Virus record (IMG/VR): IMGVR_UViG_3300027759_000003
Coordinates: 1 to 64,000 of that record
Reading direction: 5' to 3' (one strand)
Length of the DNA: 64,000 nucleotides
Source: a virus
The notes below the pieces were generated by a model. The model was not told where the DNA came from and made no database searches. It worked only from the letters and a program-made list of their open reading frames with translations. Positions 6,950-63,999 of this stretch are shown here, one piece after another. The first letter of the stretch is position 1; the number at the start of each line of letters is the position of its first letter. Both the position numbers and the translations under genes were made by a program.

Positions 6950-7321
6950 ATGAATAACGATATTCTTAAAAAAGTTGGTAATGTCCGACGCAAAGTAATA
7001 GAAAAAGACTACAATTGGGGTCTTTACGTGTACAAAAAGTCAGATGGTTCATGGTTTACAGATGGCTCTGGCAGCATATTAAACATACCAGCAGAACGTG
7101 GTGATATTACAAAAATTTCAGAATTAAAAAAAGTTGCCATTCATTACGGTGATGACGGTGAAGGAAGTGCAGTATTTGTTCCTGGACTTACAAGAATTAG
7201 CGAGGAAGAGCATTCTGAACAACTAGATAGAATGAAGAATGGCTTAATTCCTTCCATGAATGATCATGGTGCTTGGGTAGCAGCACGACAAACCTATGAT
7301 AAGTATGGTAGCAATGAGTGA
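6950..7321 (+). CDS. Hypothetical protein immediately upstream of portal
   Basis: ORF track 6944..7321; start moved to 6950 to fit the promoter; overlaps the portal start. Confidence 0.75.
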   Translation: MNNDILKKVGNVRRKVIEKDYNWGLYVYKKSDGSWFTDGSGSILNIPAERGDITKISELKKVAIHYGDDGEGSAVFVPGLTRISEEEHSEQLDRMKNGLIPSMNDHGAWVAARQTYDKYGSNE

Positions 7322-8909
7322 AGAATTCGTAAGAGTTGGATTAAACACACAAGAAAAAGATGGCAATCCATTTTCACAACAAGATCCATTTAATAAAACT
7401 TGGGATGCATTAAAAGATTTTACAGGATTAGAACAAAATTTCCGTAGGAAAACCGCAAGGAATGTTACAAAGGCAATGACCTATGCAACAAATGAATATT
7501 TAGATTCTGCTAACTCTACACCATCTGGAGTAGATGCAGGATCAAAGGCTATTAATCCTGGCACGGTATATAGAAATGGTTACGGACTATTTGACGTAAT
7601 TACTCCTCCATATAACATGTATGAGTTAGCCAACTTCTATGACACATCATTTGCTAATCATGCTGCTATTGATGCTAAGGTAGAAAACGTAGTTGGTCTT
7701 GGATATCGTTTTGATATTGCAGATAGAACAATGCTTAGGTTTGAAATGAGTGAAGATCAGGCAGCAGTTGATCGTGCTCGTAACAGAATTGAAAGAATGA
7801 AACTTGAGTTAAAGGATTGGCTAGAAAACCTTAACGATGATGATTCATTTACTAAGACTATGGAAAAATTTTATACAGATGTTCAGGCAACTGGTAATGG
7901 GTTTATTGAAATTGGTAGAACTGTAACTGGTGAAATTGGCTACGTTGGTCATATACCTGCAACCACTGTTCGTGTTCGTCGTTTACATGATGGCTTTGTT
8001 CAGATTATTGGAAACTCAGTAGTTTATTTTAGAAACTTTGGTGCTAAAAATCCAAACCCAATGACTAATGATGCACGTCCAAATGAGATTATTCACTATA
8101 AAGAATACTCTCCATTAAATACATTTTATGGTATTCCAGACATTGTTGCTGCTATGCCATCACTTATTGGTGATCAATTAGCCTCACAATACAACATTGA
8201 CTATTTTGAAAACAAGGCAGTTCCTAGATACATCGTAACCTTAAAGGGTGCAAAATTATCATCTGATGGTGAAGATAAGATGTTTAGATTTTTACAAACA
8301 GGCCTGAAATCTCAATCACATAGAACTCTTTATATCCCACTTCCTGGAGATACCGAAAGTAACAAGGTTGAGTTTAAAATGGAGCCAATTGAGAATGGTA
8401 TACAAGAGGGGTCATTTAAAGAGTATCGCAAGCAAAATCGTGATGATATTCTAATTGCACATCAAGTTCCAATTTCTAAACTTGGTGGGGCAGATTCTGG
8501 AATTGCAGCAGCCTTATCACAGGATCGTACCTTTAAAGAGCAGGTATCTCGTCCAGCACAAAAGCATCTTGAAAAGGTTGTTAATAAGATTGTTCGTGAA
8601 AAGACAGATATTCTTGAACTTAAATTTAACGAACTAACCCTTACAGATGAGATTGCTCAATCTCAAATTATTGAGCGCTATGTAAAAACACAGGTTATGA
8701 CTCCAAACGAGGCTCGTGAAAAGTTAGATCTTCCACAAAGAGCCGATGGAGATGAGCCATTTGTTATGTCTGCAAGACAGGCAACTGACACAAGGGCTAA
8801 TTTGGCAGGGAATCGTCAAAGAGATGCAGAACGAACAAATAACAATTCTGACTCTACTACAACCATCTCTGGTCGTAATGCACAGGGTGAAGGTCGCTCA
8901 TCTCAATAA
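7314..8909 (+). CDS. Portal protein
   Basis: Portal-type motifs DVQATGNGFIEI, EIIHYKEYSPLNTFYGIP, YFENKAVP, MTPNEAREKLDLP; position before protease and capsid. Start taken as MSEEF at 7314. Confidence 0.9.
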   Translation: MSEEFVRVGLNTQEKDGNPFSQQDPFNKTWDALKDFTGLEQNFRRKTARNVTKAMTYATNEYLDSANSTPSGVDAGSKAINPGTVYRNGYGLFDVITPPYNMYELANFYDTSFANHAAIDAKVENVVGLGYRFDIADRTMLRFEMSEDQAAVDRARNRIERMKLELKDWLENLNDDDSFTKTMEKFYTDVQATGNGFIEIGRTVTGEIGYVGHIPATTVRVRRLHDGFVQIIGNSVVYFRNFGAKNPNPMTNDARPNEIIHYKEYSPLNTFYGIPDIVAAMPSLIGDQLASQYNIDYFENKAVPRYIVTLKGAKLSSDGEDKMFRFLQTGLKSQSHRTLYIPLPGDTESNKVEFKMEPIENGIQEGSFKEYRKQNRDDILIAHQVPISKLGGADSGIAAALSQDRTFKEQVSRPAQKHLEKVVNKIVREKTDILELKFNELTLTDEIAQSQIIERYVKTQVMTPNEAREKLDLPQRADGDEPFVMSARQATDTRANLAGNRQRDAERTNNNSDSTTTISGRNAQGEGRSSQ

Positions 8910-8931: not shown

Positions 8932-8940
8932 TGGTATAAT
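8932..8940 (+). promoter_or_regulatory. Extended -10 promoter (TGGTATAAT)
   Basis: Consensus match 10 nt upstream of ATG 8951. Confidence 0.65.
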
Positions 8941-10270: not shown

Positions 10271-10298
10271 AGTAAAAAATCACTAGGAGGTGAAAATA

Positions 10299-43355: not shown

Positions 43356-43878
43356 AACAGAATTGGTTCAACATTTAGATGAAGTAAACAAAGTAGTTAC
43401 AGAATATTTAAAGGGTCAAGACCCAACAAAAATATCTAAAGAACTAGACATGCCTAGAACTCGTGTTGTTGCATTAATTAATGAGTGGAAAGTTATGGCA
43501 TCTGCTAATGATGCAATTCGTGCACGGGCTAAAGAAGCCCTTGCTGGAGCAGACACACACTATAGCAAACTTATTACAAAGGCTTATGAGGTTATTGATG
43601 AATCAAGTATGACAAATAACCTTAGTGCAAAGACTCAGGCTATCAAACTTGTTATGGATATTGAAAAATCTAGAATTGAAATGCTTCAAAAGGCTGGTTT
43701 GTTAGAAAATAAAGAACTTGCCGAAGAGATGGTTCAAATTGAAAGACGACAAGAAGTCCTTGTTGAAATACTTAGAGAGATTGCTTCTACGCATCCAGAA
43801 GTTCGTGATTTAATTATGCACAGACTTTCACAAATTGCAAAAGAAGGCGAAGTGATTACGATTGTCCAAGATGTTTAA
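43345..43878 (+). CDS. Terminase small subunit (probable)
   Basis: N-terminal HTH, helical body; directly upstream of and overlapping TerL. Confidence 0.65.
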   Translation: MSTETELVQHLDEVNKVVTEYLKGQDPTKISKELDMPRTRVVALINEWKVMASANDAIRARAKEALAGADTHYSKLITKAYEVIDESSMTNNLSAKTQAIKLVMDIEKSRIEMLQKAGLLENKELAEEMVQIERRQEVLVEILREIASTHPEVRDLIMHRLSQIAKEGEVITIVQDV

Positions 43879-45646
43879 TGATTTTTTAGATGTACTAAAA
43901 GAAAATCAGTTTGATGAAAAACCAGTAGATGTTAAAACATTTGTTGAGTCATCTGACTATCTTGGTCAACCAACCTTGTCAGCAATCCAGTATGACATAG
44001 TTGAAGCAATGAGTCAGATATACAAGAAAGAAGATTTACAAGAACTTTATGGGTCTGTAGAAGGGGCTAGATACTATGACAAATATACAAAAAACGAAAT
44101 CATATTACAGTTGGGGAAGGGTAGCGGTAAAGATTTTACTTCCACTGTTGCTTGTGCTTACATTGTTTATAAGTTACTTTGTCTCAAAGACCCCGCAAGA
44201 TACTTCGGAAAACCAAGCGGGGATGCGATAGATTTAATTAACGTTGCCATTAACGCACAACAGGCTAAGAACGTTTTCTTTAAAGGTTTTAAAACAAAAA
44301 TTGAAAAATCTCCTTGGTTTGCAGGTAAGTATAATGCTAAGGCTGATAGTGTTGAGTTTGATAAATCAATCACTGTCTACTCTGGGCACTCAGAAAGAGA
44401 ATCTCATGAAGGTTTAAACTTGTTGCTTGCAGTACTTGATGAAATTTCTGGATTTGCTTCTGAGGTTGGAACTGGTAATGAACAAGGTAAGACTGCAGAA
44501 AATATTTATAAAGCATTTCGTGGATCGGTAGACTCTCGTTTTCCAGATCTTGGTAAGGTTGTTCTTCTTTCATTCCCTCGTTATCAAGGTGACTTTATTT
44601 CAAAACGGTATGAAGATGTAATTATGGAAAAAGAATCAATAGAAAAAAAACATACTTTTATTATGAATGAAGACTTACCACATAATGACCCAAACAATCA
44701 ATTTGAAATTACATGGGAAGAAGATCAAATTATTTCCTACAAAGTTCCAAGGGTATTAGCATTTAAAAGACCTACATGGGAAGTAAATCCAACAAGAAAG
44801 ATAGATGATTTTAAACTAGCATTTTATACAGACCTTGGTGATGCTATGATGCGTTTTGCATGTGTCCCAACGTATGCCTCAGATGCCTTCTTTAAACAAA
44901 AAGAAAAGTTAGAAAAATGTATGAATACAAGAAATCCAATAGATTCGTTTAAAAGGTTTGAAGAAACATTTAAACCAGATCCAGAAAAAATGTATTATAT
45001 CCATGCTGACCTTGCACAAAAACATGACAAGTGTGCTGTTGCTATTGCACATGTTGATAAATGGGTTAACATTCAAGTTATTAAAGATTATGAGCAGGTA
45101 GCCCCTATAGTTGTTGTTGACGCTGTTGTGTGGTGGGAACCAAGATCAGAAGGTCCAGTTAATTTATCTGAAGTAAAACAATGGATAATTAATTTACGCA
45201 GAGAAGGATTTAATATTGGCATGGTTTCTTTTGACCGCTGGCAATCATTTGATATTCAAAATGAACTACAGGCTGTTGGTATTAGAACAGAAACTGTTTC
45301 AGTTGCCAAAAAACATTATGAAGATTTAGCAATGATGATTTATGAAGAGCGAGTAGCAATTCCTATGATTCCATTATTGTTGGAAGAAATGTCAGAATTA
45401 AAAATTATGAAGGGCAACAAAGTAGATCACCCTCGTAAAAAATCCAAGGACTTAGCGGATGCGGTCTGCGGAGCGGTATTTGGGGCAATATCTCATACCC
45501 CAAAGAATAATAATACAGAAATTGAGGTCCATACCTGGAGTTCTGCAACTCGACTTGCAGAAAAACAGCAACGTATGGTAGAATTAGATAATCGGGAAAT
45601 GCCTAACGATGTTAAGGATTTTCTAGATAATTTAAACTTAATATAA
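43862..45646 (+). CDS. terL: Terminase large subunit
   Basis: Walker A LGKGSGKD, Walker B LAVLDE, nuclease HADLA, FDRW, DHP..SKDLADA. Confidence 0.93.
   Translation: MSKMFNDFLDVLKENQFDEKPVDVKTFVESSDYLGQPTLSAIQYDIVEAMSQIYKKEDLQELYGSVEGARYYDKYTKNEIILQLGKGSGKDFTSTVACAYIVYKLLCLKDPARYFGKPSGDAIDLINVAINAQQAKNVFFKGFKTKIEKSPWFAGKYNAKADSVEFDKSITVYSGHSERESHEGLNLLLAVLDEISGFASEVGTGNEQGKTAENIYKAFRGSVDSRFPDLGKVVLLSFPRYQGDFISKRYEDVIMEKESIEKKHTFIMNEDLPHNDPNNQFEITWEEDQIISYKVPRVLAFKRPTWEVNPTRKIDDFKLAFYTDLGDAMMRFACVPTYASDAFFKQKEKLEKCMNTRNPIDSFKRFEETFKPDPEKMYYIHADLAQKHDKCAVAIAHVDKWVNIQVIKDYEQVAPIVVVDAVVWWEPRSEGPVNLSEVKQWIINLRREGFNIGMVSFDRWQSFDIQNELQAVGIRTETVSVAKKHYEDLAMMIYEERVAIPMIPLLLEEMSELKIMKGNKVDHPRKKSKDLADAVCGAVFGAISHTPKNNNTEIEVHTWSSATRLAEKQQRMVELDNREMPNDVKDFLDNLNLI
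45576..45584 (+). promoter_or_regulatory. Extended -10 promoter (TGGTAGAAT) inside terL 3' end
   Basis: TGn-TAGAAT with TTGCAG 18 nt upstream; would drive the surface-protein gene. Confidence 0.5.
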
Positions 45647-45662
45647 ACTAACAAGGAGAATA

Positions 45663-47261
45663 ATGAATTCATTTAAGAAACTTGCCACAGTCTTGGCTGC
45701 AGCCTTGACACTTGGCGTGATGTCGGCACTTCCGACACAGGCTACAGTATATGCTGACGTTGTCACCATTGATGCCGTAGCAGATACAATTAATCCTGGT
45801 GAGACTGCAACAGCAGTAGTATCAGTATCATTTTTGGGAACAAGTATTGGAGATACCGTTTCGGTAATATCTGCAGTACTATCTGCCCCATCTACTGCTA
45901 GCGTTCCACAGTTTGCCGTTACAGAAACATCTAGCGCAACAGTGGCACTATCAGCAGACACAAAAACAGCAGCAGTATCTCCAGCAACTAATACTTCTGG
46001 TTATGTTACTGCAAAGTTGACATCATCATTTTATGTGCCTACCGTCGCTGGATCATATGTAGTTAGATTTATTCCTACATTGACTAGCGCATCTGGTTCA
46101 GTTACATCTGCTGCCATTACATGGACAGTTACTGTTACCGCTCCAGACCTTAAGGCATCAACTGCTTATACAACATCTTTTATTAATACTGGAGAAACAA
46201 TTTCAGCAACAACAGATGCTACTGTATATGCTTCAAAGACAGTCTCATCTGATGCAGCAGCAGTTATTGTTTTAACTCAAAAGAATGCTGTTAATGCTTC
46301 TGCTTCAGAATCTGTTACAGCAACAATTTCAGGAGCGGGTATGTTGGGGTATGGTACAAACCATACAACAATTAACGGTCTTGGTAGATCATTAGTTGTA
46401 CCTGCAGGAAACTACATTGGAGTATTCTCTGATGGAACATCTGGAGTAGGAACAATTACACTTACTTCACAGTCTGGAGCATTATTAGCAACAGAGAAAG
46501 TAACATTTTATGGTGACATTGCCAAAGTTGTTACAACTGTAAAGAAGCCAGCAATTGCTGTAGGTTCTAACGCAGACGCAATTTCTGCCGTAGCATATGA
46601 TGCTGCTGGCGTAGTTGTAGGAGCAGGAACACTAACAGTTACTTCAAATGATCTTACAGTAATCAGCAACTCAGCAACAACTGCTTCTATCTCTAATGGT
46701 GCAGCGTTGTTTTCTTTGGCTGGTGTTAAGACTGGTTCAGTAGGTGTAGTAGTAAAGAGTGGAACAATCTCTGCAGACACAGTTACTGTGCGTGTAGAGG
46801 CTGCCGTTGCTTCTATTAAGTTGGCTTTTGATAAAGCAAACTATGTAGCAGGAGAGCAAGCCACAATTACTCTTTCACCAGTTGATGCAACAGGTGCCGT
46901 ATTGTCTGGAAAGACATATGCTAGCCTACTTGCTTCTACAGGAATTACTACAAGTTATTCCTTTGGTGGATCAAGCGATACCATTACTGCAACATCTATT
47001 ACAACTGACGCAAATGGTGTAAAAACTTACAAAGTTTATATGCCATTATCTGCAGGAGCAGTTACTATCAGCGCAACTGGTGGAACTGATTTACCAGCAG
47101 CAGGTCAAGTAAAGGTGTCAGCATCTGCAACAGTAACTGATTCAGCATCACAAGCACTTGCTGCTGTGGCTGCATTAACTGTAACCGTTGCACAACTTAA
47201 GACATTAATCACAACCTTGACTAATCTTGTATTAAAGATTCAGAAAAAGGTTAAGGCTTAA
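45663..47261 (+). CDS. Secreted Ala/Thr/Ser/Val-rich Ig-like surface (S-layer-like) protein
   Basis: Signal peptide MNSFKKLATVLAAALTLGVMSALPTQA; beta-rich Ig-type repeats; amphipathic C-terminal helix LKTLITTLTNLVLKIQKKVKA. Confidence 0.75.
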   Translation: MNSFKKLATVLAAALTLGVMSALPTQATVYADVVTIDAVADTINPGETATAVVSVSFLGTSIGDTVSVISAVLSAPSTASVPQFAVTETSSATVALSADTKTAAVSPATNTSGYVTAKLTSSFYVPTVAGSYVVRFIPTLTSASGSVTSAAITWTVTVTAPDLKASTAYTTSFINTGETISATTDATVYASKTVSSDAAAVIVLTQKNAVNASASESVTATISGAGMLGYGTNHTTINGLGRSLVVPAGNYIGVFSDGTSGVGTITLTSQSGALLATEKVTFYGDIAKVVTTVKKPAIAVGSNADAISAVAYDAAGVVVGAGTLTVTSNDLTVISNSATTASISNGAALFSLAGVKTGSVGVVVKSGTISADTVTVRVEAAVASIKLAFDKANYVAGEQATITLSPVDATGAVLSGKTYASLLASTGITTSYSFGGSSDTITATSITTDANGVKTYKVYMPLSAGAVTISATGGTDLPAAGQVKVSASATVTDSASQALAAVAALTVTVAQLKTLITTLTNLVLKIQKKVKA

Positions 47262-47279
47262 CAACTCCTTATAAAAATT

Positions 47280-47309
47280 GAGGGTAGATTAATTTCTACC
47301 CTCTTTTTT
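47280..47309 (+). terminator. Intrinsic terminator
   Basis: GAGGGTAGA/TCTACCCTC 9-bp stem plus T-run. Confidence 0.85.
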
Positions 47310-47321
47310 ATTGCATAAAAA

Positions 47322-47330
47322 TGGTATAAT
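47322..47330 (+). promoter_or_regulatory. Extended -10 promoter (TGGTATAAT)
   Basis: Right after the terminator; SD GGAGAG before TTG 47365. Confidence 0.7.
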
Positions 47331-47364: not shown

Positions 47365-49971
47365 TTGACTAACCTTAAACGAAGACTAGTATTAGCCTTT
47401 GGGGTAGGGTTGTGTTTAACAATTTTTGGGATAATGGCTCCTGATCGTGCCCATGCTACAGAAAATCAAGAACAAGTTGTTGTAAGTCCCGCTCAACAAG
47501 CAGTTAATACAGCCCTTGCAACAGCCACTACAGAGGTTCAACAGGCTATTACAGCCACAGATACTGCCACTGCCACCATAGCCGTAGCAGTTTCTGAAAG
47601 AGTAGAGGCTCAGGCAGCGGTAGATACAGTAACAGCCACAATAGCAGTAGCACAATCAAATGTAGCCTTAGTAGACACAGCAACAGCCACAATTAGTTCT
47701 GTAGATTTATCTGTTACACCAATAGATCAAAGTTCTCAAATAGTTATAGATGCAAAAAATACAATTACAACAGCACAAACCTCCATAAATAATATTGACA
47801 CATTAACTGCACAGGTACAAATATCTGAAGCCGTTGCAGCAAAAACAACAGCAACAACAGCACAAGCCACCGCACAAACCGAACTAACTCAAGCCAACAT
47901 TGCAATTGATAATGCTCAAACAGCAGTAAATAATTTACAAGCCACCATTGGAACTAGCACTAATGTTCTTGCTGGCGTAGACGATGCTGGCGTTAAAATG
48001 AATCTTCCATTCGGAATGCAAATGGGTGGAACTTTATATAACAATGTATTTGTTGGGTCTAATGCAACCATAACATTTGGTGTTAACGAAGGTCCTAATT
48101 ATTATTCTACTCCAAGTGCACCATCCGTATCTATTGCTGGCTGGGACTGGACAACTTGGAGCACAGGAACTGGAATTACATATGCAACTACTGGAACAAG
48201 TTTAGATATTGCATGGGACCTTCGCCCTTATCCACAACAAGATGCTTCAACACAAATGGTTCAAGTAAGATTTAATGCTGATGTGAATCCCAATGATGGT
48301 GCTTGGATGGCAACTGTTAGTGCTAATGGACCAATACCTAATGGAGCAAGATTTAATTATAGAGAAACTACAAATGGAAATGTAAATAATATTGAGGATA
48401 TAAATTCTGGGTCAGGATTCAACGGACAAATAAGTCAAGGTGCAGCATTTACTCCATATGTAGACCCAAATACTTCAACAATTCAAGCAGCAGTAGATTC
48501 TGCAAATGCTACAATTGCACAGTTAAACTCAAGTCTTACTCCAGTAGTTGCTCAAAATACTACAAACACATCAGCAATAAATGCTATTAATACAACATCT
48601 TTAACTAATGCCGTAAACTCAGCGGTATCTAGTAAAACAAACTTACAAACACAATTAAATACAAATGCTCAAGAGTTAATTACAGCAATTAATACTCATA
48701 TTCCTACTCCAGCCCCAGTGTTATCAGAACCAGTAATTGAAGGAACGACAGTTGTTATTACGCCTGAATTGCCAGAAGGATACACAGCCAATACTTGGTT
48801 TTATCAAGTAATAACGAATGATCCAGATGCAGAAAACCCATATGAAGGTGGAACATATAATACAACTGGTGCTCCAGAATCTATTGAATTAACTGGTTTG
48901 ACAGAAGGCTCTACCTATACTGTTAGAGTTGCTAACTGGTCTGGACCTGTAAGTGAGTATACAGAGGTTGTTATTTCTATACCCGCACCAGAAGAAATTA
49001 TTATAGCCCCAGCCCCAGAGCCAGTTTTTATTTATGCGCCTGAACAAACCTTACCAGACGAGACCATTCCAACTGAAGAGGAGAATACAGAAACAGAAGA
49101 GATTCCTGTAGAGGAAATTCCTGTGGAAGAAATCCCTGTTGAAGAAGTGCCTTCTGAAGAAACTGAATCTCCCGAAACGGATACACCTGAATTTGATGAA
49201 TCTTCATCCAACGATGAACTAGAAAATATTCTTGAAGAAAATCAGGATTTTTTTGAAGAAATAGCACAAGATAATGATACCTTATCTGTAGAACAAATAC
49301 AAGACATAGTTAGTGATTTAGTTGCAGATAGTGGTTTAAATGCATCTGAAGTTGCAGAAGTATTAGAGGCAATTGCTCAGGGCGGAGAGGTATCTGAAGA
49401 AGTTGCTGCAGAAGTTTCATCTGTATTATCAGAGGGCGGACTAACAGAATCAGAAGCAGATTTTATTACAGAAATGCTTTCTGCAGATGGAGAAATAACA
49501 ACTGCAGAAGTTGTTAATTTGTCAGAGGCATTAAACGAAGACGGTAAGTTTACTTTAGTAGAAAAAGATTTAGTTGCAGACGTATTAGTATCATCAGCAG
49601 AGGGAGCACCAGTAACTGCTGCAAACATAGAATCGGCGGGACTTGAATATCGTGATCTTCCTCCTACAATTCCAGTAGAAGTAAGAGAAGATGCTAGCGG
49701 TAACCCTGTGGTTATTACTGCAGAGGTGGCTTCAGCATTGCTTGTATTAGAAAGTCCAGCAGCATTATTAGATGCGGTTGCTACTTGTTTTAATCCAGAT
49801 GAAGCAATTGAAGGTTTGACAGAAGAGCAAAAATGTGAGTTAGGTAAAGCCTTACTCAGCATGGGTGCTGACATGTCTATACCAGAACGTGAAAAAGCAG
49901 AAGATATTGTAGTTGTAACAATTATTGCTGGTCAATTAATTGTTGCTACTGCACCTAGAAGAAGGAGATAA
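47365..49971 (+). CDS. Large secreted, C-terminally anchored surface protein (coiled coil, NIDO-like domain, FN3, acidic stalk)
   Basis: Signal peptide ending AHA; A/T/Q heptads; DDAGVKMNLPFGMQMGG..VGSNATITFG (nidogen-like); LTGLTEGSTYTVRVAN (FN3); EEIPV repeats; hydrophobic tail plus RRRR. Confidence 0.75.
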   Translation: MTNLKRRLVLAFGVGLCLTIFGIMAPDRAHATENQEQVVVSPAQQAVNTALATATTEVQQAITATDTATATIAVAVSERVEAQAAVDTVTATIAVAQSNVALVDTATATISSVDLSVTPIDQSSQIVIDAKNTITTAQTSINNIDTLTAQVQISEAVAAKTTATTAQATAQTELTQANIAIDNAQTAVNNLQATIGTSTNVLAGVDDAGVKMNLPFGMQMGGTLYNNVFVGSNATITFGVNEGPNYYSTPSAPSVSIAGWDWTTWSTGTGITYATTGTSLDIAWDLRPYPQQDASTQMVQVRFNADVNPNDGAWMATVSANGPIPNGARFNYRETTNGNVNNIEDINSGSGFNGQISQGAAFTPYVDPNTSTIQAAVDSANATIAQLNSSLTPVVAQNTTNTSAINAINTTSLTNAVNSAVSSKTNLQTQLNTNAQELITAINTHIPTPAPVLSEPVIEGTTVVITPELPEGYTANTWFYQVITNDPDAENPYEGGTYNTTGAPESIELTGLTEGSTYTVRVANWSGPVSEYTEVVISIPAPEEIIIAPAPEPVFIYAPEQTLPDETIPTEEENTETEEIPVEEIPVEEIPVEEVPSEETESPETDTPEFDESSSNDELENILEENQDFFEEIAQDNDTLSVEQIQDIVSDLVADSGLNASEVAEVLEAIAQGGEVSEEVAAEVSSVLSEGGLTESEADFITEMLSADGEITTAEVVNLSEALNEDGKFTLVEKDLVADVLVSSAEGAPVTAANIESAGLEYRDLPPTIPVEVREDASGNPVVITAEVASALLVLESPAALLDAVATCFNPDEAIEGLTEEQKCELGKALLSMGADMSIPEREKAEDIVVVTIIAGQLIVATAPRRRR

Positions 49972-52189: not shown

Positions 52190-53191
52190 ATGAAAAAAAT
52201 AGTGGTGGGAATTATAACTGTATTAGGTTTAACATTAATTCAATCACCTGCACATGCAGAGGTTTGTTCTACTGGAACTATTACCGTTTCTGGTATTAAT
52301 ACTTTTGGTCAACTTCCATGTACAGATCCTGGAACTGAGATTAATGTAACCGTTCGTGGTTTACATGATTATGGAGTTTCTGGTGGATTAACTGCCTATT
52401 GCTCATTTAATTACGTAAGGAGAAATTTAGGTACAGTTGAAAAACCTAATTGGTCAGCATCTACAAATACTGTTTGTGATCCAAAACCAACTCCTCCTGC
52501 ACCAACTCCTACGCCAGTGCCTACGCCAACTCCTACGCCAGTGCCTACGCCAACTCCTACGCCAGTGCCTACGCCAGTGCCAAGTGTTGAAACTAGGACG
52601 GTATCAACAGGTACATCGTCAACTTCATCAACAACTACAACTAATAACAATACAACAACCAATCAATTAAATGGTTATGCAGTAGTACATCCTACTGGAT
52701 ATGTATGTGGAGTTATTGTTGGTGGCTCATACTTTGCAGGAAATGATAAAACTATGACATCAGAGTATATGGGTTGTCCAGTAGGTAGTAAAATAATTTC
52801 ACAAACAAACGCATCTCCAGAAGGAAATGTTGCTGGATGGCATGGTCAAAATGTAACATATAATCAAAATCAATTTGCAATCAAAAATGATTCTGGAACT
52901 GTTACAACTACTATTCAAAATGGAGTAGCAACAGATTTGAACGGTAGAACTTGGGATACTGGTTCAGGTGCTTGTATTAGTCAATGTACTACAACAAGTA
53001 TTTCTGATACAACTACTGCAACTACTGATACTTCAACTGCTCAGTTAAGATCTTTTAATGCGGGTGAAGTTATTACTACAGAAAGTAAAGTTTTAGCACT
53101 TATTAAAAGTTATTTAGCAAATAATTCTTATAGTTCTGTATTAAATAGGCTTGGTAGAATTACAAGACAAATAGGTAATTTGTTCTTGTAA
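52190..53191 (+). CDS. Secreted Thr/Pro-rich, Cys-containing protein
   Basis: Signal peptide ending AHA; PT-repeat linker; several Cys pairs; amphipathic C-terminal helix. Confidence 0.75.
   Translation: MKKIVVGIITVLGLTLIQSPAHAEVCSTGTITVSGINTFGQLPCTDPGTEINVTVRGLHDYGVSGGLTAYCSFNYVRRNLGTVEKPNWSASTNTVCDPKPTPPAPTPTPVPTPTPTPVPTPTPTPVPTPVPSVETRTVSTGTSSTSSTTTTNNNTTTNQLNGYAVVHPTGYVCGVIVGGSYFAGNDKTMTSEYMGCPVGSKIISQTNASPEGNVAGWHGQNVTYNQNQFAIKNDSGTVTTTIQNGVATDLNGRTWDTGSGACISQCTTTSISDTTTATTDTSTAQLRSFNAGEVITTESKVLALIKSYLANNSYSSVLNRLGRITRQIGNLFL
52502..52582 (+). repeat. 3 exact copies of 24-bp unit CCAACTCCTACGCCAGTGCCTACG (PTPTPVPT linker) plus partial copy
   Basis: Copies at 52502, 52526 and 52550. 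Confidence 0.95.
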
Positions 53192-57856: not shown

Positions 57857-58066
57857 ATGTTTATTAGAAGTTTGAATACTATGGAAAAAATTATTTCCAA
57901 AAATAATAATTTACTTTGGAATGGTTGGGATGTTATTGATTTAAAAGAATCTGACATTGCAAAAACATCTCCAATGGGTATTAGAGTTAAAGATAAGTGG
58001 TACATCCACAAAGTTTATTCTCCTGGTCGTAATGGGTGGGATATACCAAACAAGTATCGAGAGTAA
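57857..58066 (+). CDS. Hypothetical Trp-rich protein
   Basis: ORF track; SD GGGGG. Confidence 0.7.
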   Translation: MFIRSLNTMEKIISKNNNLLWNGWDVIDLKESDIAKTSPMGIRVKDKWYIHKVYSPGRNGWDIPNKYRE

Positions 58067-58068
58067 TT

Positions 58069-58353
58069 ATGAAACAGCATTTATGGAAAGATGACGCAAT
58101 TTGTTTAGGTCTTGATACAAATATTTATTTTGATAAATATGAAGACAACGAATCTGGTAGGGCAATTGTTGATTCAATGTGCCAGCAATGTCCAGTAGCA
58201 AAAACATGCTTTGCAGTAGGCATCTCTGGTAAAGAGTGGGGTGTTTGGGGTGGAGTATATCTAGAAGGTGGAGAAGTATCTAGAGAGTTTAACAAGCATA
58301 AGACTAAAGAAGATTGGTCCAATACCTGGCAATCTTTAACAATGGAAAAATAA
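58069..58353 (+). CDS. whiB: WhiB-family Fe-S transcription factor
   Basis: W...A.C...D...F...C..CPV...C...E.GVWGG signature. Confidence 0.93.
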   Translation: MKQHLWKDDAICLGLDTNIYFDKYEDNESGRAIVDSMCQQCPVAKTCFAVGISGKEWGVWGGVYLEGGEVSREFNKHKTKEDWSNTWQSLTMEK

Positions 58354-59452: not shown

Positions 59453-59484
59453 AGCCAGTCTAGAAATAGGCTGGCTTTTCTTTT
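59453..59484. terminator. Terminator between convergent transcription units
   Basis: AGCCAGTCTA-GAAA-TAGGCTGGCT followed by TTTCTTTT. Confidence 0.85.
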
Positions 59485-60520
59485 ATTTGTTTATAATTTC
59501 TAAGTATTTTTGTTTTAATTTATCTATAGAAAAGTTTTCTAAACCAATTGATAATGCTTTTTCTTTAAATTCTTTTTTATTATTATTTTTAATATATCTA
59601 TCAACTATGTTTGCAAATTTATCTGGAACAATATTATAAATATCAACCATTGACTTTGTTCTAAATGATCCTATCTTTGTTGATTCTACTAACCAATCTT
59701 CAGGCAATATTGTATTATTTGGAGATACATTAGTCATAAAAACTGGCAGGGCACTCATAAGAGCCTCATTCATAGGTAAACAAAGACCAGCATACCTTCT
59801 AGGCAGAATCATTGCATCAAAGCCATCATACATGTCTTCCCTACTGGCTGGATTACCTATTTCAATCTTTACCCTAGAATCTTTACAGTTTGTATCAATT
59901 GGGGTTTGGGATTTAATTACTAATTCGTAATCTTCTTTAGAATGCTTGACCATCTCAAAAATACTTTCAGTTCCATTTCTATCTTTTGCAGCCTTTTTAC
60001 CAGCAATATGAAGTATACGGTTGTGATCTTTTGAAAGATTATTGTCTTTTGCTTTATTAAATAAAGACTCATTTGTTGGTGGTGGTAAATGAATTACATC
60101 ACATGCAGAGCCAAACCTTTCTTTTACTATGTCTATATTCCAAAGACTAGGAGATAGCAATACATCTGGTAATGACCAGTTAGGGTTTGTTAAGTTACCA
60201 AAAAGTTCGTAGTTGTATTGAAGAATAGTCTTTGTTCCTTGTTGCCTAGCAAGATCTACAAGGTCTAAATGATAAAAGGTTTCACAACTAATTACTACAT
60301 CAACATCTTTTAAAAACCAAATAATTTCTTTTGTTGTTGGCATACCTCCCCTAGTTGAGTAAAAATTATAACCTTCATACCATTCAGGATGCTGTTTATT
60401 TTTATTAAACGGGGCAGAGTCAATTAAAAGAATCTTATCAGGATTAAGCATATTAACTAACTCTCTAGTCTGATTGCCAAGACCAGTGTTGTCTGATCTT
60501 GCTATGATTCCTAGTCTCAT
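59483..60520 (-). CDS. Glycosyltransferase, GT-B (GT4-like)
   Basis: N-terminal GLG motif; DAMILPRRYAGLCLPMNEALMSALPV. Confidence 0.85.
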   Translation of the reverse strand: MRLGIIARSDNTGLGNQTRELVNMLNPDKILLIDSAPFNKNKQHPEWYEGYNFYSTRGGMPTTKEIIWFLKDVDVVISCETFYHLDLVDLARQQGTKTILQYNYELFGNLTNPNWSLPDVLLSPSLWNIDIVKERFGSACDVIHLPPPTNESLFNKAKDNNLSKDHNRILHIAGKKAAKDRNGTESIFEMVKHSKEDYELVIKSQTPIDTNCKDSRVKIEIGNPASREDMYDGFDAMILPRRYAGLCLPMNEALMSALPVFMTNVSPNNTILPEDWLVESTKIGSFRTKSMVDIYNIVPDKFANIVDRYIKNNNKKEFKEKALSIGLENFSIDKLKQKYLEIINK

Positions 60521-61278
60521 TCTTTATACCCCCAAGTTTCATCGTCTACCGTAAATTTGCGGGTACCTTGACGACCATCTAAATGATAAGAACGTTTAAT
60601 GTTTTCTTCAGGATGATAAATCCAAAGTTTATGAGTCTCCCAACCTTCTTGATTAAACTCCCCATATGGAGATATATCATCTTGAATTGCTCCATGAAAT
60701 GTATCTTCTATAAAAAATTTATCTTTACATCTTGGAAGCACAATGTCTTTATAATATTGTTTTCTACTTAGATGTGGTCGTTGACTCCATTGTATAGTTT
60801 TCATAAACCCATCTTCTAAACCAAACATAAGGTGTTCGTGATCTTTTGGTATAAATGCTTCAAAATGAAAACGAATAGTATTTGCTTTATTGTATTCAAA
60901 CATGTCCAAACATTTATCCCAGTCTATAGGTGTGTCTGGAGTTAATGGAGCGTCTCCTTCAACATAAAGCAATAGTGGTGTTTTAATTTCATTAATTGTT
61001 TTACGCATCATGTTGGTTTGATGGCTATGCTCTTTAAATATAAAAGGTAATATGTTTTTATCTTCATGTAAACATTTCCACAAAATACGATTTTTGTATT
61101 CATCGTAATCTTTTTTACGATCTTGTTGTTCTTCCCTAAGACCATCTATTTGCATAATAATTTCGTTGTCTGGAAAATGAGCACGAACATCACTAATAGT
61201 TTGATCTATCATTTTTGTGCTTGGATGATCTGTAATTACAGAAGTAGCCATGACAATTGTTATATCTTTTTTATGCAT
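60517..61278 (-). CDS. Glycosyltransferase, GT-A (GT2-like)
   Basis: ITIVMAT, IIMQID, LLYVEGD (DxD-like), WSQRPHL. Confidence 0.7.
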   Translation of the reverse strand: MHKKDITIVMATSVITDHPSTKMIDQTISDVRAHFPDNEIIMQIDGLREEQQDRKKDYDEYKNRILWKCLHEDKNILPFIFKEHSHQTNMMRKTINEIKTPLLLYVEGDAPLTPDTPIDWDKCLDMFEYNKANTIRFHFEAFIPKDHEHLMFGLEDGFMKTIQWSQRPHLSRKQYYKDIVLPRCKDKFFIEDTFHGAIQDDISPYGEFNQEGWETHKLWIYHPEENIKRSYHLDGRQGTRKFTVDDETWGYKE

Positions 61279-62125
61279 TTACTTGCCTCATTAATTTAAT
61301 AAAAAGATCTCTTTTATATTTAATCCACCAACAAACAATCTGATGCATTTCAGATGTATAATTATTTAATAGTTCAGGTAACAAGTCAACCAAGTGATTC
61401 CAATTATCAACAGTTTTTACTGAATGATTATCTTCAAATACAAAATTAAAAAAATCTGTATTTTGCATTTTTGAGTCTAACTTATCTCCTATAGGCAAGC
61501 AAAGCATTTCAATTGCTTCATAAAATCTAAATGAATCAATAACCATCGCCCCGCTAGGGCAAGGAACAATCTTTGATAAAGACATTTTGTCATAGTATTG
61601 TTTTGGTTTTAGTCCTTCTGCAAAACCAGTAGTTGGATTATAAAAAGAATTAGGTATGTTAGGCATAACAGTTGCAAGTTCTTGTCTTCGTTGATGAGTT
61701 ATTTGTCCTGAAAAAAATACATCATATGATTTATCTTGATATTTTGGTAAATGTTTATGCAAATCTCTTGGCACACCCAACGCTAATTTATTATATTGCG
61801 AATGTTTTCTGTGCGGGTATTGAACCCAAATCTCAATATTTTTATGTTTTATTTTATCAACTTTAAATGTAGCACTTTCATCTCCAGTAATAAACAAAAT
61901 AACTCTATCTATCTTGTTTAACTCTTCAGATATTTGATCTTCATAGTCTACATTTTGTGGTCCAGGAATAACAACAAAGGCTCTATCTGTGTTAGGTAAG
62001 GTTGTTACCTTATCTGGTTTAATATTATTTTTATTAAAAAATTGTTTTAATAAACCGTAATCCCATTTATCAGCAGCACAGTCTTCTTGTTTAACTGAAT
62101 AAAGATATGCTTTAAGATCGCTCAT
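61271..62125 (-). CDS. Exostosin (GT47)-like glycosyltransferase
   Basis: YDVFFSG..RR, YYDKMSLSKIVPCPSG, SFRFYEAIEMLCLPI; leaderless start MSDLKAY at 62125 (TACACT 6 nt upstream). Confidence 0.7.
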   Translation of the reverse strand: MSDLKAYLYSVKQEDCAADKWDYGLLKQFFNKNNIKPDKVTTLPNTDRAFVVIPGPQNVDYEDQISEELNKIDRVILFITGDESATFKVDKIKHKNIEIWVQYPHRKHSQYNKLALGVPRDLHKHLPKYQDKSYDVFFSGQITHQRRQELATVMPNIPNSFYNPTTGFAEGLKPKQYYDKMSLSKIVPCPSGAMVIDSFRFYEAIEMLCLPIGDKLDSKMQNTDFFNFVFEDNHSVKTVDNWNHLVDLLPELLNNYTSEMHQIVCWWIKYKRDLFIKLMRQVNA

Positions 62126-62825
62126 AATATAAGTGTACTTCATGTTGATAGTCAAGCAATGTTTCTTTGTAGCCAATACCCTTAATAAACTGTCTTAAAT
62201 CATGCAAATATTCTTTCCAATACATCATCATAAATTCTGGGTGTCCAGATAGCCAAATCTTAGGTTTGTGCTCTCTAAGGACCCTTTCAGCCCCTCCTAG
62301 GACCCTCCATTCACTACCCTCAACATCAAGAGAAATTGCAGTAGGCGGCTTCATTCCTTTTTCATATACAAGCGTATCAATTTTTGTTTGACCATATTTA
62401 TCTGCTTCATACTGCAGTTCTTTAAATCCATGAGCAGCCTCAATAGGAGCATCTGCTTCTGGTGGAAACTCGCCATAATAAATACGTGCAAGTTTATTAT
62501 CTTTATCTGATGCAAACCCAGGAATACATGCAATTGGTTTTTCTAAATTATTAGCACTCCAAAGCAAAGGAAAGTGTGACCAAACCTTTGGATTAGGTTC
62601 AAATAAAACAACTTCTGCTCCCCACATTTGACATAGGGCAGGCATTTCTCCTTCTTCTGCTCCAACATAGTAAACAACATCGCCTTTACCAATATTTTCA
62701 TGCATTGATTTTAATCTAATTTTTTCCCAACCATGTGGTTGATACCATTCTGGTCTATCTGCACGATGCTTTGGTAACATTATTTCAAATTCCCCGTTAA
62801 CAGTAGCCTTAATCATTTCAGTCAT
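62112..62825 (-). CDS. FkbM-family SAM-dependent methyltransferase
   Basis: VVYYVGAEEG, FEPNP, ISLDVEGSEWRVLGG. Confidence 0.85.
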   Translation of the reverse strand: MTEMIKATVNGEFEIMLPKHRADRPEWYQPHGWEKIRLKSMHENIGKGDVVYYVGAEEGEMPALCQMWGAEVVLFEPNPKVWSHFPLLWSANNLEKPIACIPGFASDKDNKLARIYYGEFPPEADAPIEAAHGFKELQYEADKYGQTKIDTLVYEKGMKPPTAISLDVEGSEWRVLGGAERVLREHKPKIWLSGHPEFMMMYWKEYLHDLRQFIKGIGYKETLLDYQHEVHLYYERS

Positions 62826-63705
62826 TTTGTATCCACTCTACTAATGATACCTTTGGTATCCATCCAGTTAGATCTTTAAACTTGGCGTTAGAGGCAAGAG
62901 TTTCTTGCACTTCACCAATTCTTGGCGGTATAAATTTAATATCATTTGAAATCATATTAGCAATATCAAGTATAGCGTAGTTACTTCCATACCCAATGTT
63001 ATATACTTCACCAAACCCACTTTTAACTTCAGATGCAAGTATGTTTGCTTGTACTACGTCTGATATATGGGTAAAATCTCTACGCTGAGAACCATCTCCA
63101 ACTACTGTTAGTGGCTTTGACTCATGATGTTGTTTAAAAAATAGTCCTATTACTGGTGCATACTGCCCCTTTAATGGTTGTCTATCTCCGTAAACATTAA
63201 AATATCTAAGCGATATAGTCTTTAATCCGTAAAGGTTGTGATAAACTCTTGCAAGGTTTTCACCAAAGACTTTAGCAGCAGAATATGGGGTTAATGGATC
63301 AGGTGATTGTGTTTCTTGGTTTGGAAGCAAAGCCTTTTTGCCATAAGAAGAGGATGTGCTTGAATAGATTAGTCTATCTACCTTGTTAACCCTGCAAAGT
63401 TCAAGAACATTGGCTGTTCCTACTGCGTTTGATTGAATAGATTTTTTTGGATTTAATATTGCTGGCTGTATTCTTGCATCAGATGCTACGTGAAATACGC
63501 AGTCAACATCTTTAAAGAGTGGTGCAATTAGGTCATAATCACAAATGTCATGCTTATAATTTTGTGCTTTATCATTCCAATAGAACTGCTCATGACATTC
63601 TGCAGACTCATCATCAATGCAAATAACATCGTGACCAAGACTAATTAACTTATCAACAAGGTTTGATCCAATAAAACCAGCACCACCAGTAACTAAATAT
63701 TTCAT
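62818..63705 (-). CDS. NAD-dependent nucleotide-sugar epimerase/dehydratase (extended SDR)
   Basis: VTGGAGFIGS, SSTSSSYG, YSAAK, RYFNVYG, GDGSQRRDF; start MKYLV at 63705. Confidence 0.93.
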   Translation of the reverse strand: MKYLVTGGAGFIGSNLVDKLISLGHDVICIDDESAECHEQFYWNDKAQNYKHDICDYDLIAPLFKDVDCVFHVASDARIQPAILNPKKSIQSNAVGTANVLELCRVNKVDRLIYSSTSSSYGKKALLPNQETQSPDPLTPYSAAKVFGENLARVYHNLYGLKTISLRYFNVYGDRQPLKGQYAPVIGLFFKQHHESKPLTVVGDGSQRRDFTHISDVVQANILASEVKSGFGEVYNIGYGSNYAILDIANMISNDIKFIPPRIGEVQETLASNAKFKDLTGWIPKVSLVEWIQND

Positions 63706-63999
63706 TTTATGTTTAGAGTTTCTAATATGCTTGCCCATCTATGAACATATGTATGTTCTTTTTTAGTCCGCTCATGACCAGCAATCCTTATTTCTTCTCT
63801 GGTTAATCCATCTAAGATGTAGTAATCTATTTTTTGTTTAAGGTCTTCAAGATTACCATGCTCATAAAATATAATTTCTTTACCATCTTCAAAATATTTA
63901 TCAAGTCCTTTGATGCGGGGATAGATAGTAAAACCACCACGACCAGTGCTTTCAAATAGTCTATCGCTTGTATAGTATGGATAGTTAAAGTTTATGTTT
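63702..63999 (-). CDS. CgeB/YkvP-like glycosyltransferase, C-terminal part (truncated by window edge)
   Basis: Reads ...YTSDRLFESTGRGGF..YFEDGKEIIFY..KIDYY..REEIRIAGHER..HTYVHRW; TGA overlaps the epimerase ATG. Confidence 0.8.
   Translation of the reverse strand, partial: NINFNYPYYTSDRLFESTGRGGFTIYPRIKGLDKYFEDGKEIIFYEHGNLEDLKQKIDYYILDGLTREEIRIAGHERTKKEHTYVHRWASILETLNIK

Follow-up and report, generated by a model that had tools for sequence, protein, structure and literature searches.

A predicted secreted immunoglobulin-like protein encoded beside the terminase gene of a phage is a homologue of a coat protein of freshwater Nanopelagicaceae

The window analyzed here comprises the first 64,000 nucleotides (64 kb) of IMG/VR virus record IMGVR_UViG_3300027759_000003, which is 109,757 bp long. 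Sixteen nucleotides past the stop codon of the large terminase gene (terL) begins an open reading frame (ORF) for a protein of 532 amino acids (aa), referred to here as X532 (Table 1). An original prediction, made from the letters of the window alone, described X532 as a phage-encoded, S-layer-like host surface protein with a transcription unit of its own. That the gene belongs to a phage is upheld by terL on its 5' side, a CHAP endolysin gene on its 3' side, portal, protease, and capsid genes elsewhere, and a 109.8-kb genome with direct terminal repeats. Judged by alignment, X532 is homologous over its full length to the secreted coat protein of a chromosomal family found in Nanopelagicaceae. 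A new finding is that X532 represents just one of the alleles that fill a slot which is universal in this phage group and hypervariable in content. Its gene is placed outside the structural module for head and tail, which runs from 7.3 to 30.6 kb (portal at 7296, protease at 8939, capsid at 10290, and tail genes up to ~30.6 kb), and is followed by genes for an 868-aa protein with a signal peptide, a holin-like membrane protein (50367), and the endolysin (50777).

Table 1. Features of the X532 gene, its flanks, and other genes discussed in the text (positions in the window)
Feature	Position	Strand	Comment
terL (large terminase)	43862..45646	+	phrog_2, E 1e-16; the variable slot has the 3' end as its conserved left border
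Candidate extended -10 promoter TGGTAGAAT	45576..45584	+	inside the terL coding sequence; one mismatch from TGNTATAAT
Shine-Dalgarno sequence AAGGAGA	45653..45659	+	read directly; AGGAGA kept in relatives
X532 coding sequence, 532-aa homologue of a secreted coat protein	45663..47261 (stop included)	+	ATG start
Sec signal peptide, aa 1-27	45663..45743	+	predicted cleavage after T-Q-A27; K5, A8, L15, G18, S21, P24, and A27 conserved in phage and host copies
Four to five tandem Ig-like beta domains, aa 32-492	45756..47138	+	AlphaFold2 pLDDT 86; weak Pfam Big_1 match at aa 290-377
C-terminal heptad (coiled-coil type) helix, 39 residues, basic tail ending KIQKKVKA	47142..47258	+	presumed anchoring/oligomerization module
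Intrinsic terminator (9-bp stem, 6-nt loop, T-run)	47280..47309 (stem 47280-47303)	+	right flank of the cassette
Extended -10 promoter TGGTATAAT of the next gene (868-aa protein)	47322..47330	+	marks the end of the unit
868-aa protein	47365..49971		signal peptide; C-terminal hydrophobic tail ending RRRR
333-aa protein	52190..53191
WhiB-like gene	58036..58353		PF02467, E 2.8e-12, above cut-off
Sugar-modifying gene cluster	59483..63738	-	includes a generic epimerase gene (62818-63738)

Sequence analysis and an AlphaFold2 model agree with the original prediction on a secreted protein with immunoglobulin-like (Ig-like) domains, a Sec signal, a strong Shine-Dalgarno sequence, an amphipathic basic C-terminal helix, and a terminator. 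The signal peptide combines lysines at positions 5 and 6 with a hydrophobic core at residues 7 to 23 (mean Kyte-Doolittle score, 2.1) and the cleavage-type c-region T-Q-A27. X532 has no cysteine; it therefore has no lipobox, and its signal is not that of a lipoprotein. In the model, which was built with a 29-sequence alignment and has an overall predicted local distance difference test score (pLDDT) of 86, residues 1 to 29 are unstructured or form a lone helix (pLDDT <50), the body is all-beta with strands from 33 to 492, and a single helix spans residues 494 to 531. The hydrophobic moment of this helix (0.50) is the maximum of the protein (mean, 0.16; standard deviation, 0.10), all 11 of the 11 a/d positions in its heptad core are hydrophobic, and its isoelectric point (pI) is 10.6. 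The mature protein has a pI of 5.5 (4.75 for the body) and consists to ~65% of Ala, Thr, Ser, Val, and Gly (~58% without Gly).

A scan of genome contigs with the single X532 protein as the query gave no match. A profile of 29 homologues identified 56 loci in species-representative genomes, nearly all of them titled Nanopelagicaceae, Planktophila, Nanopelagicus, or freshwater Actinomycetota and including complete chromosomes of 1.3 to 1.5 Mb (IMCC26103, IMCC25003, and many isolates). The cellular homologues that the original prediction had proposed looking for in actinobacterial genomes are thus present, and the likeness to surface proteins of freshwater Actinobacteria that it had pointed to proved correct: the Nanopelagicaceae homologues are full length, their signal peptide is of the type seen in X532, and they too end in KIQKKVKA. 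Several lake metagenome-assembled genomes (MAGs) with the host gene carry the titles "Bifidobacterium breve" or "Streptomycetaceae" and look like mislabelled lake MAGs. The best host match, at locus L128, is 43% identical over residues 4 to 532 (tblastn, E 5e-98), and a BLASTP search with the body only gave 45% over 491 columns (E 2e-90). When phage and host copies are compared, the N and C termini are nearly invariant and the middle is variable; in the alignment of both (A1), L15 and A27 are invariant, and K5, A8, G18, S21, and P24 are conserved at 90% or more. X532 shares with the host family the signal-peptide pattern K-(K/R), hydrophobic core, P-x-x-A, the Ig-like body plan, and the C-terminal heptad helix pattern ...LTNLV(L/I)KIQKKV(K/R)A. 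All host copies carry the signal peptide MSTKTTFKRIALVAV... and the ending ...LTNLVIKIQKKVKA. X532 differs in being phage encoded, in its signal-peptide variant (MNSFKK... versus MSTKTTFKR... in hosts), and in being shorter than the host proteins, which have about 580 to 950 aa. The host proteins are acidic (pI 4.3 to 4.9) and rich in Ala, Thr, Ser, and Val, and most of the nine that were checked lack cysteine. Host bodies are unalignable between species, and some copies escape the profile, such as that of LanE-43 (836 aa). The profile matched in 76 of the 201 genomes of the host family, a lower bound because many matches lie at contig ends.

The host coat gene is usually single copy and has a conserved chromosomal position, ~45 to 125 kb from one end. 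A gene for an extracytoplasmic function (ECF) sigma-like factor lies 5' of it, and on the 3' side follow genes for a Wzy_C (O-antigen-ligase-like) membrane protein, UDP-glucose dehydrogenase, an epimerase, methyltransferases, and WavE. No phage genes were found near the host coat loci examined. The phage copy has neither the leader of the host gene, the ECF sigma gene, Wzy_C, nor the sugar genes, so that the chromosomal context native to the family is missing around it. X532 belongs to the host coat family by ancestry but is placed outside the locus native to it. The host leader itself is a conserved 5' region of ~140 nucleotides (L128:7850-7988; alignment A2) with the invariant blocks ATCAGCACGTGCGAT and TCGACTATCGAAAGGAAACAAATG and several hairpins, and compensatory changes occur at 12 of its 49 predicted pairs (10 sequences). 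It has no match in Rfam, and in the output of gene callers it often appears wrongly translated, as extra N-terminal sequence of the coat protein.

The comparison of host and phage copies that the original prediction had called for places the phage sequences among those of the hosts. In a 61-sequence IQ-TREE phylogeny (quick mode), all phage copies and four metagenomic ones form one clade, with a Shimodaira-Hasegawa-like approximate likelihood ratio test (SH-aLRT) value of 100. Under a midpoint root the clade falls inside host diversity, with L083 and L123 as the nearest hosts. The direction of transfer depends on the root; we infer transfer from host to phage because the host locus is universal and syntenic. 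The acquisition may be old, as suggested by a phage-like GC content at third codon positions (0.20). X532 is also a mosaic. Its body is closest to that of L128 (45%), which itself has a long-stalk C terminus. The final 37 aa of X532 resemble hosts of the short type, with 84% identity to L091 and L094, and reach 81% identity to the "Ca. Nanopelagicus" MAG L086; over the last 22 aa, identity to L091 and L094 rises to 95%. Among 32 distinct phage alleles of 532 aa, the ratio of nonsynonymous to synonymous substitution rates (dN/dS) comes to 0.15 for the whole gene and stays within 0.11 to 0.18 in every region, with values of 0.165 for the signal peptide and 0.11 for the C-terminal helix. The phage copies, signal peptide included, thus evolve under purifying selection. 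The earlier argument that a signal peptide speaks against a virion part is strengthened by this selection and by the location of the gene outside the virion module.

Related phages were sampled by terL (84 to 99% identity, n = 80 loci), and an ORF beginning MNSFK(K/R) is present in 79 of these 80 relatives. The slot lies directly downstream of terL in relatives with 78 to 100% terL identity, and the ORF starts 15 to 51 nucleotides past terL in 21 of the 21 slots that were read. The 57 complete slot ORFs, 310 to 575 aa long, differ in their endings. The type ...KWNxKNPKAKV..L.K accounts for 25 of the 57, the type of the window (...KIQKKVKA) for 14, ...INKQIAALQKLILSRK (the LILSRK type) for 8 plus one variant, and ...IAKIMKKLGIK for 2; the remaining ORFs are singletons. 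There are at least four C-terminal helix types among the alleles, and bodies and helix types are swapped between related phages. The flanks are conserved across alleles, with TGGTAGAAT in terL and the signal-peptide codons on the 5' side and the terminator followed by TGGTATAAT on the 3' side; the terminator is often an identical GAGGGTAGA...TCTACCCTC hairpin. This is the pattern that cassette exchange by recombination at conserved flanks would leave.

At least two of the slot allele and helix types match host coat types. For example, the LILSRK-type allele L161 is 32% identical over 432 aa (E 6e-30) to the coat protein of host genome G038, and their C-terminal helices are nearly identical. 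The G038 protein has a host signal peptide, and its gene adjoins an epimerase gene. A KWN-type allele, modelled with a pLDDT of 76, has the body plan of X532, in which a signal helix is followed by two Ig-like domains and then by a helix of 105 residues, and in some phages (L072-L079) the KWN type is fused to an X532-like body. In five relatives (L034, L053, L057, L069, and L070), the X532-type gene is not beside terL; it follows a different gene several kilobases past the lysis cassette, in most cases near position 8001. These relocated copies have their own spacer of ~100 nucleotides and their own terminator, which argues that the gene moves as a unit. The only truncated copy seen is an X532 allele of 464 aa (L047:3233-4624), in which a premature stop after ...VYMPLLI removes the C-terminal helix; either this copy is broken or the assembly is wrong at this point.

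The original prediction of a candidate promoter and a stand-alone transcription unit stands in part. Every relative examined has a hairpin and T-run 3' of the slot gene, and at least four stem sequences are represented among them. Because these sequence differences preserve the structure, support for the terminator is good. For promoters, a generic sigma-70 scan of the window gave chance-level counts and none ahead of the X532 gene. The window has 11 exact copies of the motif TGNTATAAT (3270, 8932, 11511, 14599, 16082, 30998, 40211, 47322, 50153, 53503, and 55491), in 11 of 11 cases on the + strand and mostly just 5' of genes. Such a number does not exceed chance (11 was reached in 10 of 100 shuffles), but the strand and placement of the copies are striking; these sites are probably extended -10 promoters of the phage. 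TGGTAGAAT or a close variant is kept ~80 to 118 nucleotides 5' of the slot gene in all terL-adjacent relatives, and L012, which has a different terL tail, has TGATACAAT at the same distance. As evidence for an X532 promoter this conservation is suggestive only, because TGGTAGAAT encodes M-V-E-L of terL and coding constraint alone could explain it. Overall, the predicted promoter is conserved but lies inside terL and is unproven. A self-contained cassette with its own terminator makes a stand-alone unit plausible, and it is unproven because no terminator separates X532 from terL; read-through from terL is possible.

The description of X532 as S-layer-like (S-layer, surface layer) likewise fares unevenly. 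X532 has the composition typical of S-layer proteins (acidic, Cys-free, rich in Ala, Thr, Ser, and Val, with a signal peptide), and it resembles Sap of B. anthracis and SbsB and SbsC of Geobacillus in these respects, in its tandem Ig-like architecture, and in its export by Sec, which is predicted for X532. Conserved anchoring modules with a variable remainder are common to S-layer proteins and the X532 family, and the position of the host gene beside an O-antigen-ligase-like gene and sugar genes recalls S-layer glycoprotein loci. In contrast to those proteins, the presumed anchor of X532 is a C-terminal helix of the coiled-coil type, and searches with Pfam, NCBIfam, and a PDB sequence profile, the last of which returned nothing meaningful, revealed neither an SLH or CWB2 domain nor any other known anchor. 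Signs of the very high expression typical of S-layer proteins are indirect, namely the strong Shine-Dalgarno sequence and terminator of the phage gene and the conserved structured leader of the host gene. No family in PHROGs, NCBIfam, or PADLOC covers X532, and Pfam gave a sub-threshold Big_1 match only. Foldseek searches against PDB and BFVD gave only generic tandem-Ig matches with TM-scores of 0.15 to 0.25. These matches include S-layer proteins (Sap, SbsB, SbsC, and one from an archaeon) as well as invasin, PrgB, complement C3, and Big_1 proteins of phages, and the S-layer proteins score no better than other tandem-Ig proteins. The fold thus cannot decide between an S-layer protein, an adhesin, and a virion decoration. 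"S-layer" is therefore best taken, for X532 and the host protein, as an analogy suggested by composition, architecture, and glycan-locus context. Several homologues carry the JGI label "trimeric autotransporter adhesin," probably due to their Ala-rich coiled-coil tail.

We have high confidence that X532, being a homologue of the host coat protein and exported, has its site of action at the host envelope. Its export to the envelope of the infected cell by way of the host's anchoring module is well supported. X532 would be exported by Sec in the infected cell, and its signal peptide would be cleaved near A27. The C-terminal helix would then plug into the anchoring or oligomerization system that holds the host coat protein, so that the infected cell would display a phage-specified coat subunit. 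The likeliest benefit would be to mask or alter the surface recognized by phages, and such masking would bring superinfection exclusion and would keep progeny from sticking to infected cells and debris. As a whole, the best explanation is that X532 is a phage-borne host coat allele that is exported, anchored to the host, and alters the surface of the infected cell, and we consider this account evenly balanced between right and wrong. Exclusion or masking as the actual purpose is a reasonable candidate that falls somewhat short of an even chance. Several points weigh against this account. X532 may be a late gene, given the terL junction without a terminator, and exclusion functions are not usually expressed late. 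Virions often carry Ig-like domains, and PADLOC gave no match of X532 to known defence or exclusion families. The GC content of the phage (35%) is below that of the presumed host (42 to 47%). Finally, the commonest slot type, KWN (the L202 type, ...KWNxKNPKAKV...), was not found in the 201 host genomes searched, so not every allele can be tied to a host anchor.

The same export and display could serve other ends. The phage might supply coat protein so that the envelope stays intact and grazing-resistant after host transcription fails, which would make X532 an auxiliary gene of the psbA type, in keeping with slow acI growth and a long infection. Host homology and intact export signals agree with such a role, and the dedicated sigma factor and structured leader of the host gene suggest tight, high expression that infection could disrupt. 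However, none of the host bodies found exceeds 45% identity to the phage copies, host bodies do not align between species, and a subunit so diverged is unlikely to fit into the resident lattice. Only in other freshwater Actinobacteria is such a coat known to protect against grazers. We consider this role unlikely. X532 could instead help virions escape, as a "poison" subunit that takes the host anchor, cannot form a lattice, and loosens the coat before lysis. The joining of a host-type anchor to a foreign body would suit this idea, as would the position of the gene between terL and the lysis cassette and possible late transcription together with terL. Against it, the gene sits kilobases after the lysis genes in L034, L053, L057, and L069, and export and incorporation would need to be fast and massive. 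We know of no such mechanism in bacteria and rate this idea as quite unlikely.

Two further explanations were weighed. X532 could be a virion protein, an Ig-like decoration or adhesin on the capsid or tail, with a hydrophobic N-terminal segment that does not work as a signal peptide. Many phage structural proteins have tandem Ig-like folds, the gene adjoins terL, and the nearest clusters in the ESM Atlas are viral, without names. Yet the segment is a canonical n/h/c signal peptide that is conserved from hosts to phages and under purifying selection, the homologues are genes of a chromosomal envelope locus, and the gene is far from the head and tail modules and belongs to no structural PHROG family; a virion role is accordingly very unlikely. 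The idea that X532 is a neutral hitch-hiker, captured from a host and of no use to the phage, has nothing specific in its favor and is scarcely credible in view of the dN/dS of 0.15 over 32 alleles, a slot that is filled in 79 of 80 relatives, and conserved regulatory flanks.

Phage proteins that act at the envelope of the infected cell have precedents to which the favored reading, a phage-specified coat subunit on the host surface, can be compared. Llp of T5, Cor, and Ltp of S. thermophilus are small phage lipoproteins that block superinfection at the envelope. They resemble X532 as products of phage genes with an export signal and a surface action against other phages (proposed for X532), and they differ from it in that X532 has no lipobox cysteine. 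The OM43 phage Melnitz has an annotated putative S-layer-type protein for which a role in exclusion was only postulated (PMC9004378); it too is a phage gene product with an export signal and a proposed surface action, known by annotation. Unlike all of these, X532 belongs to a cassette of alleles that mirror host coat types. Envelope proteins of huge phages, described in a 2026 preprint (10.64898/2026.10.24.761521), are similarly predicted to be displayed on the host surface via the host's own sorting route. These rely on sortase B with LPXTG-type signals or on beta-barrels and come from phages of >200 kb, mostly from the gut, whereas X532 has a helix-type anchor and is encoded by a 110-kb phage that presumably infects freshwater actinobacteria. 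Ig-like decorations of virions (Hoc-type, Big_2, and FN3 additions) are also phage-encoded Ig-like folds, but they lack a signal peptide and are part of, or bind to, structural proteins, whereas X532 has a selected signal peptide and chromosomal envelope homologues. A literature search found no paper on an acI S-layer (Nanopelagicales, Planktophila), on a phage-borne acI coat gene, or on this family, and a 2026 review of S-layers and viruses leaves phage-encoded S-layer homologues unmentioned.

acI/Nanopelagicaceae are the dominant bacterioplankton of lakes, and their microdiversity is widely attributed to phage pressure, while their surface and phage receptors are essentially unknown (PMC10202952). 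A single-copy, hypervariable host family in an envelope-glycan locus, with matching alleles in the universal, exchangeable slot of a common phage group, is a concrete candidate for the main phage-host interface. X532 would also add a case in which a virus copies the main surface protein of its host rather than using a small dedicated exclusion factor. The finding also makes it testable whether phage allele types pair with host coat types. More tentatively, this widespread group of acI phages of ~100 to 130 kb may keep a "coat-mimic" slot loaded with host coat alleles through flank recombination, with a C-terminal anchor type that tracks the coat of the host strain and subunits that, once inserted into the host layer, hide the receptor or open the layer for egress. 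We regard this broader scheme as possible but rather doubtful. If true, the phage genome would hold a second, mirror-image copy of the host's main arms-race locus.

The assignment of the phage to an acI/Nanopelagicaceae host is inferred. WhiB is counted as an actinophage marker (PMC10202952), so the WhiB-like gene in the window supports an actinobacterial host. The freshwater origin of the phage contigs rests on host genome titles and not on sample metadata. INPHARED phages gave no DNA match and no protein match. The sole isolated acI phages have 39-kb genomes, for which such a gene goes unmentioned (PMC10202952).

Other genes of the window deserve mention. The 868-aa neighbour of X532 lacks a homologue in the five complete host genomes compared and falls into no family of Pfam, PHROG, or NCBIfam. 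It is missing in some relatives (L024 and L071), which argues that it is a separate cassette. The sugar-modifying cluster was considered as a possible derivative of the host coat locus, and this was dropped, as only the generic epimerase matched, at ~32%, and nothing pointed to a joint acquisition of cluster and coat gene. A stretch of ~100 aa in the 333-aa phage protein is 59% identical to a sequence just 3' of the coat gene in a "Ca. Planktophila" MAG (L123:7579-7869), and this protein may be another envelope module shared by phage and host.

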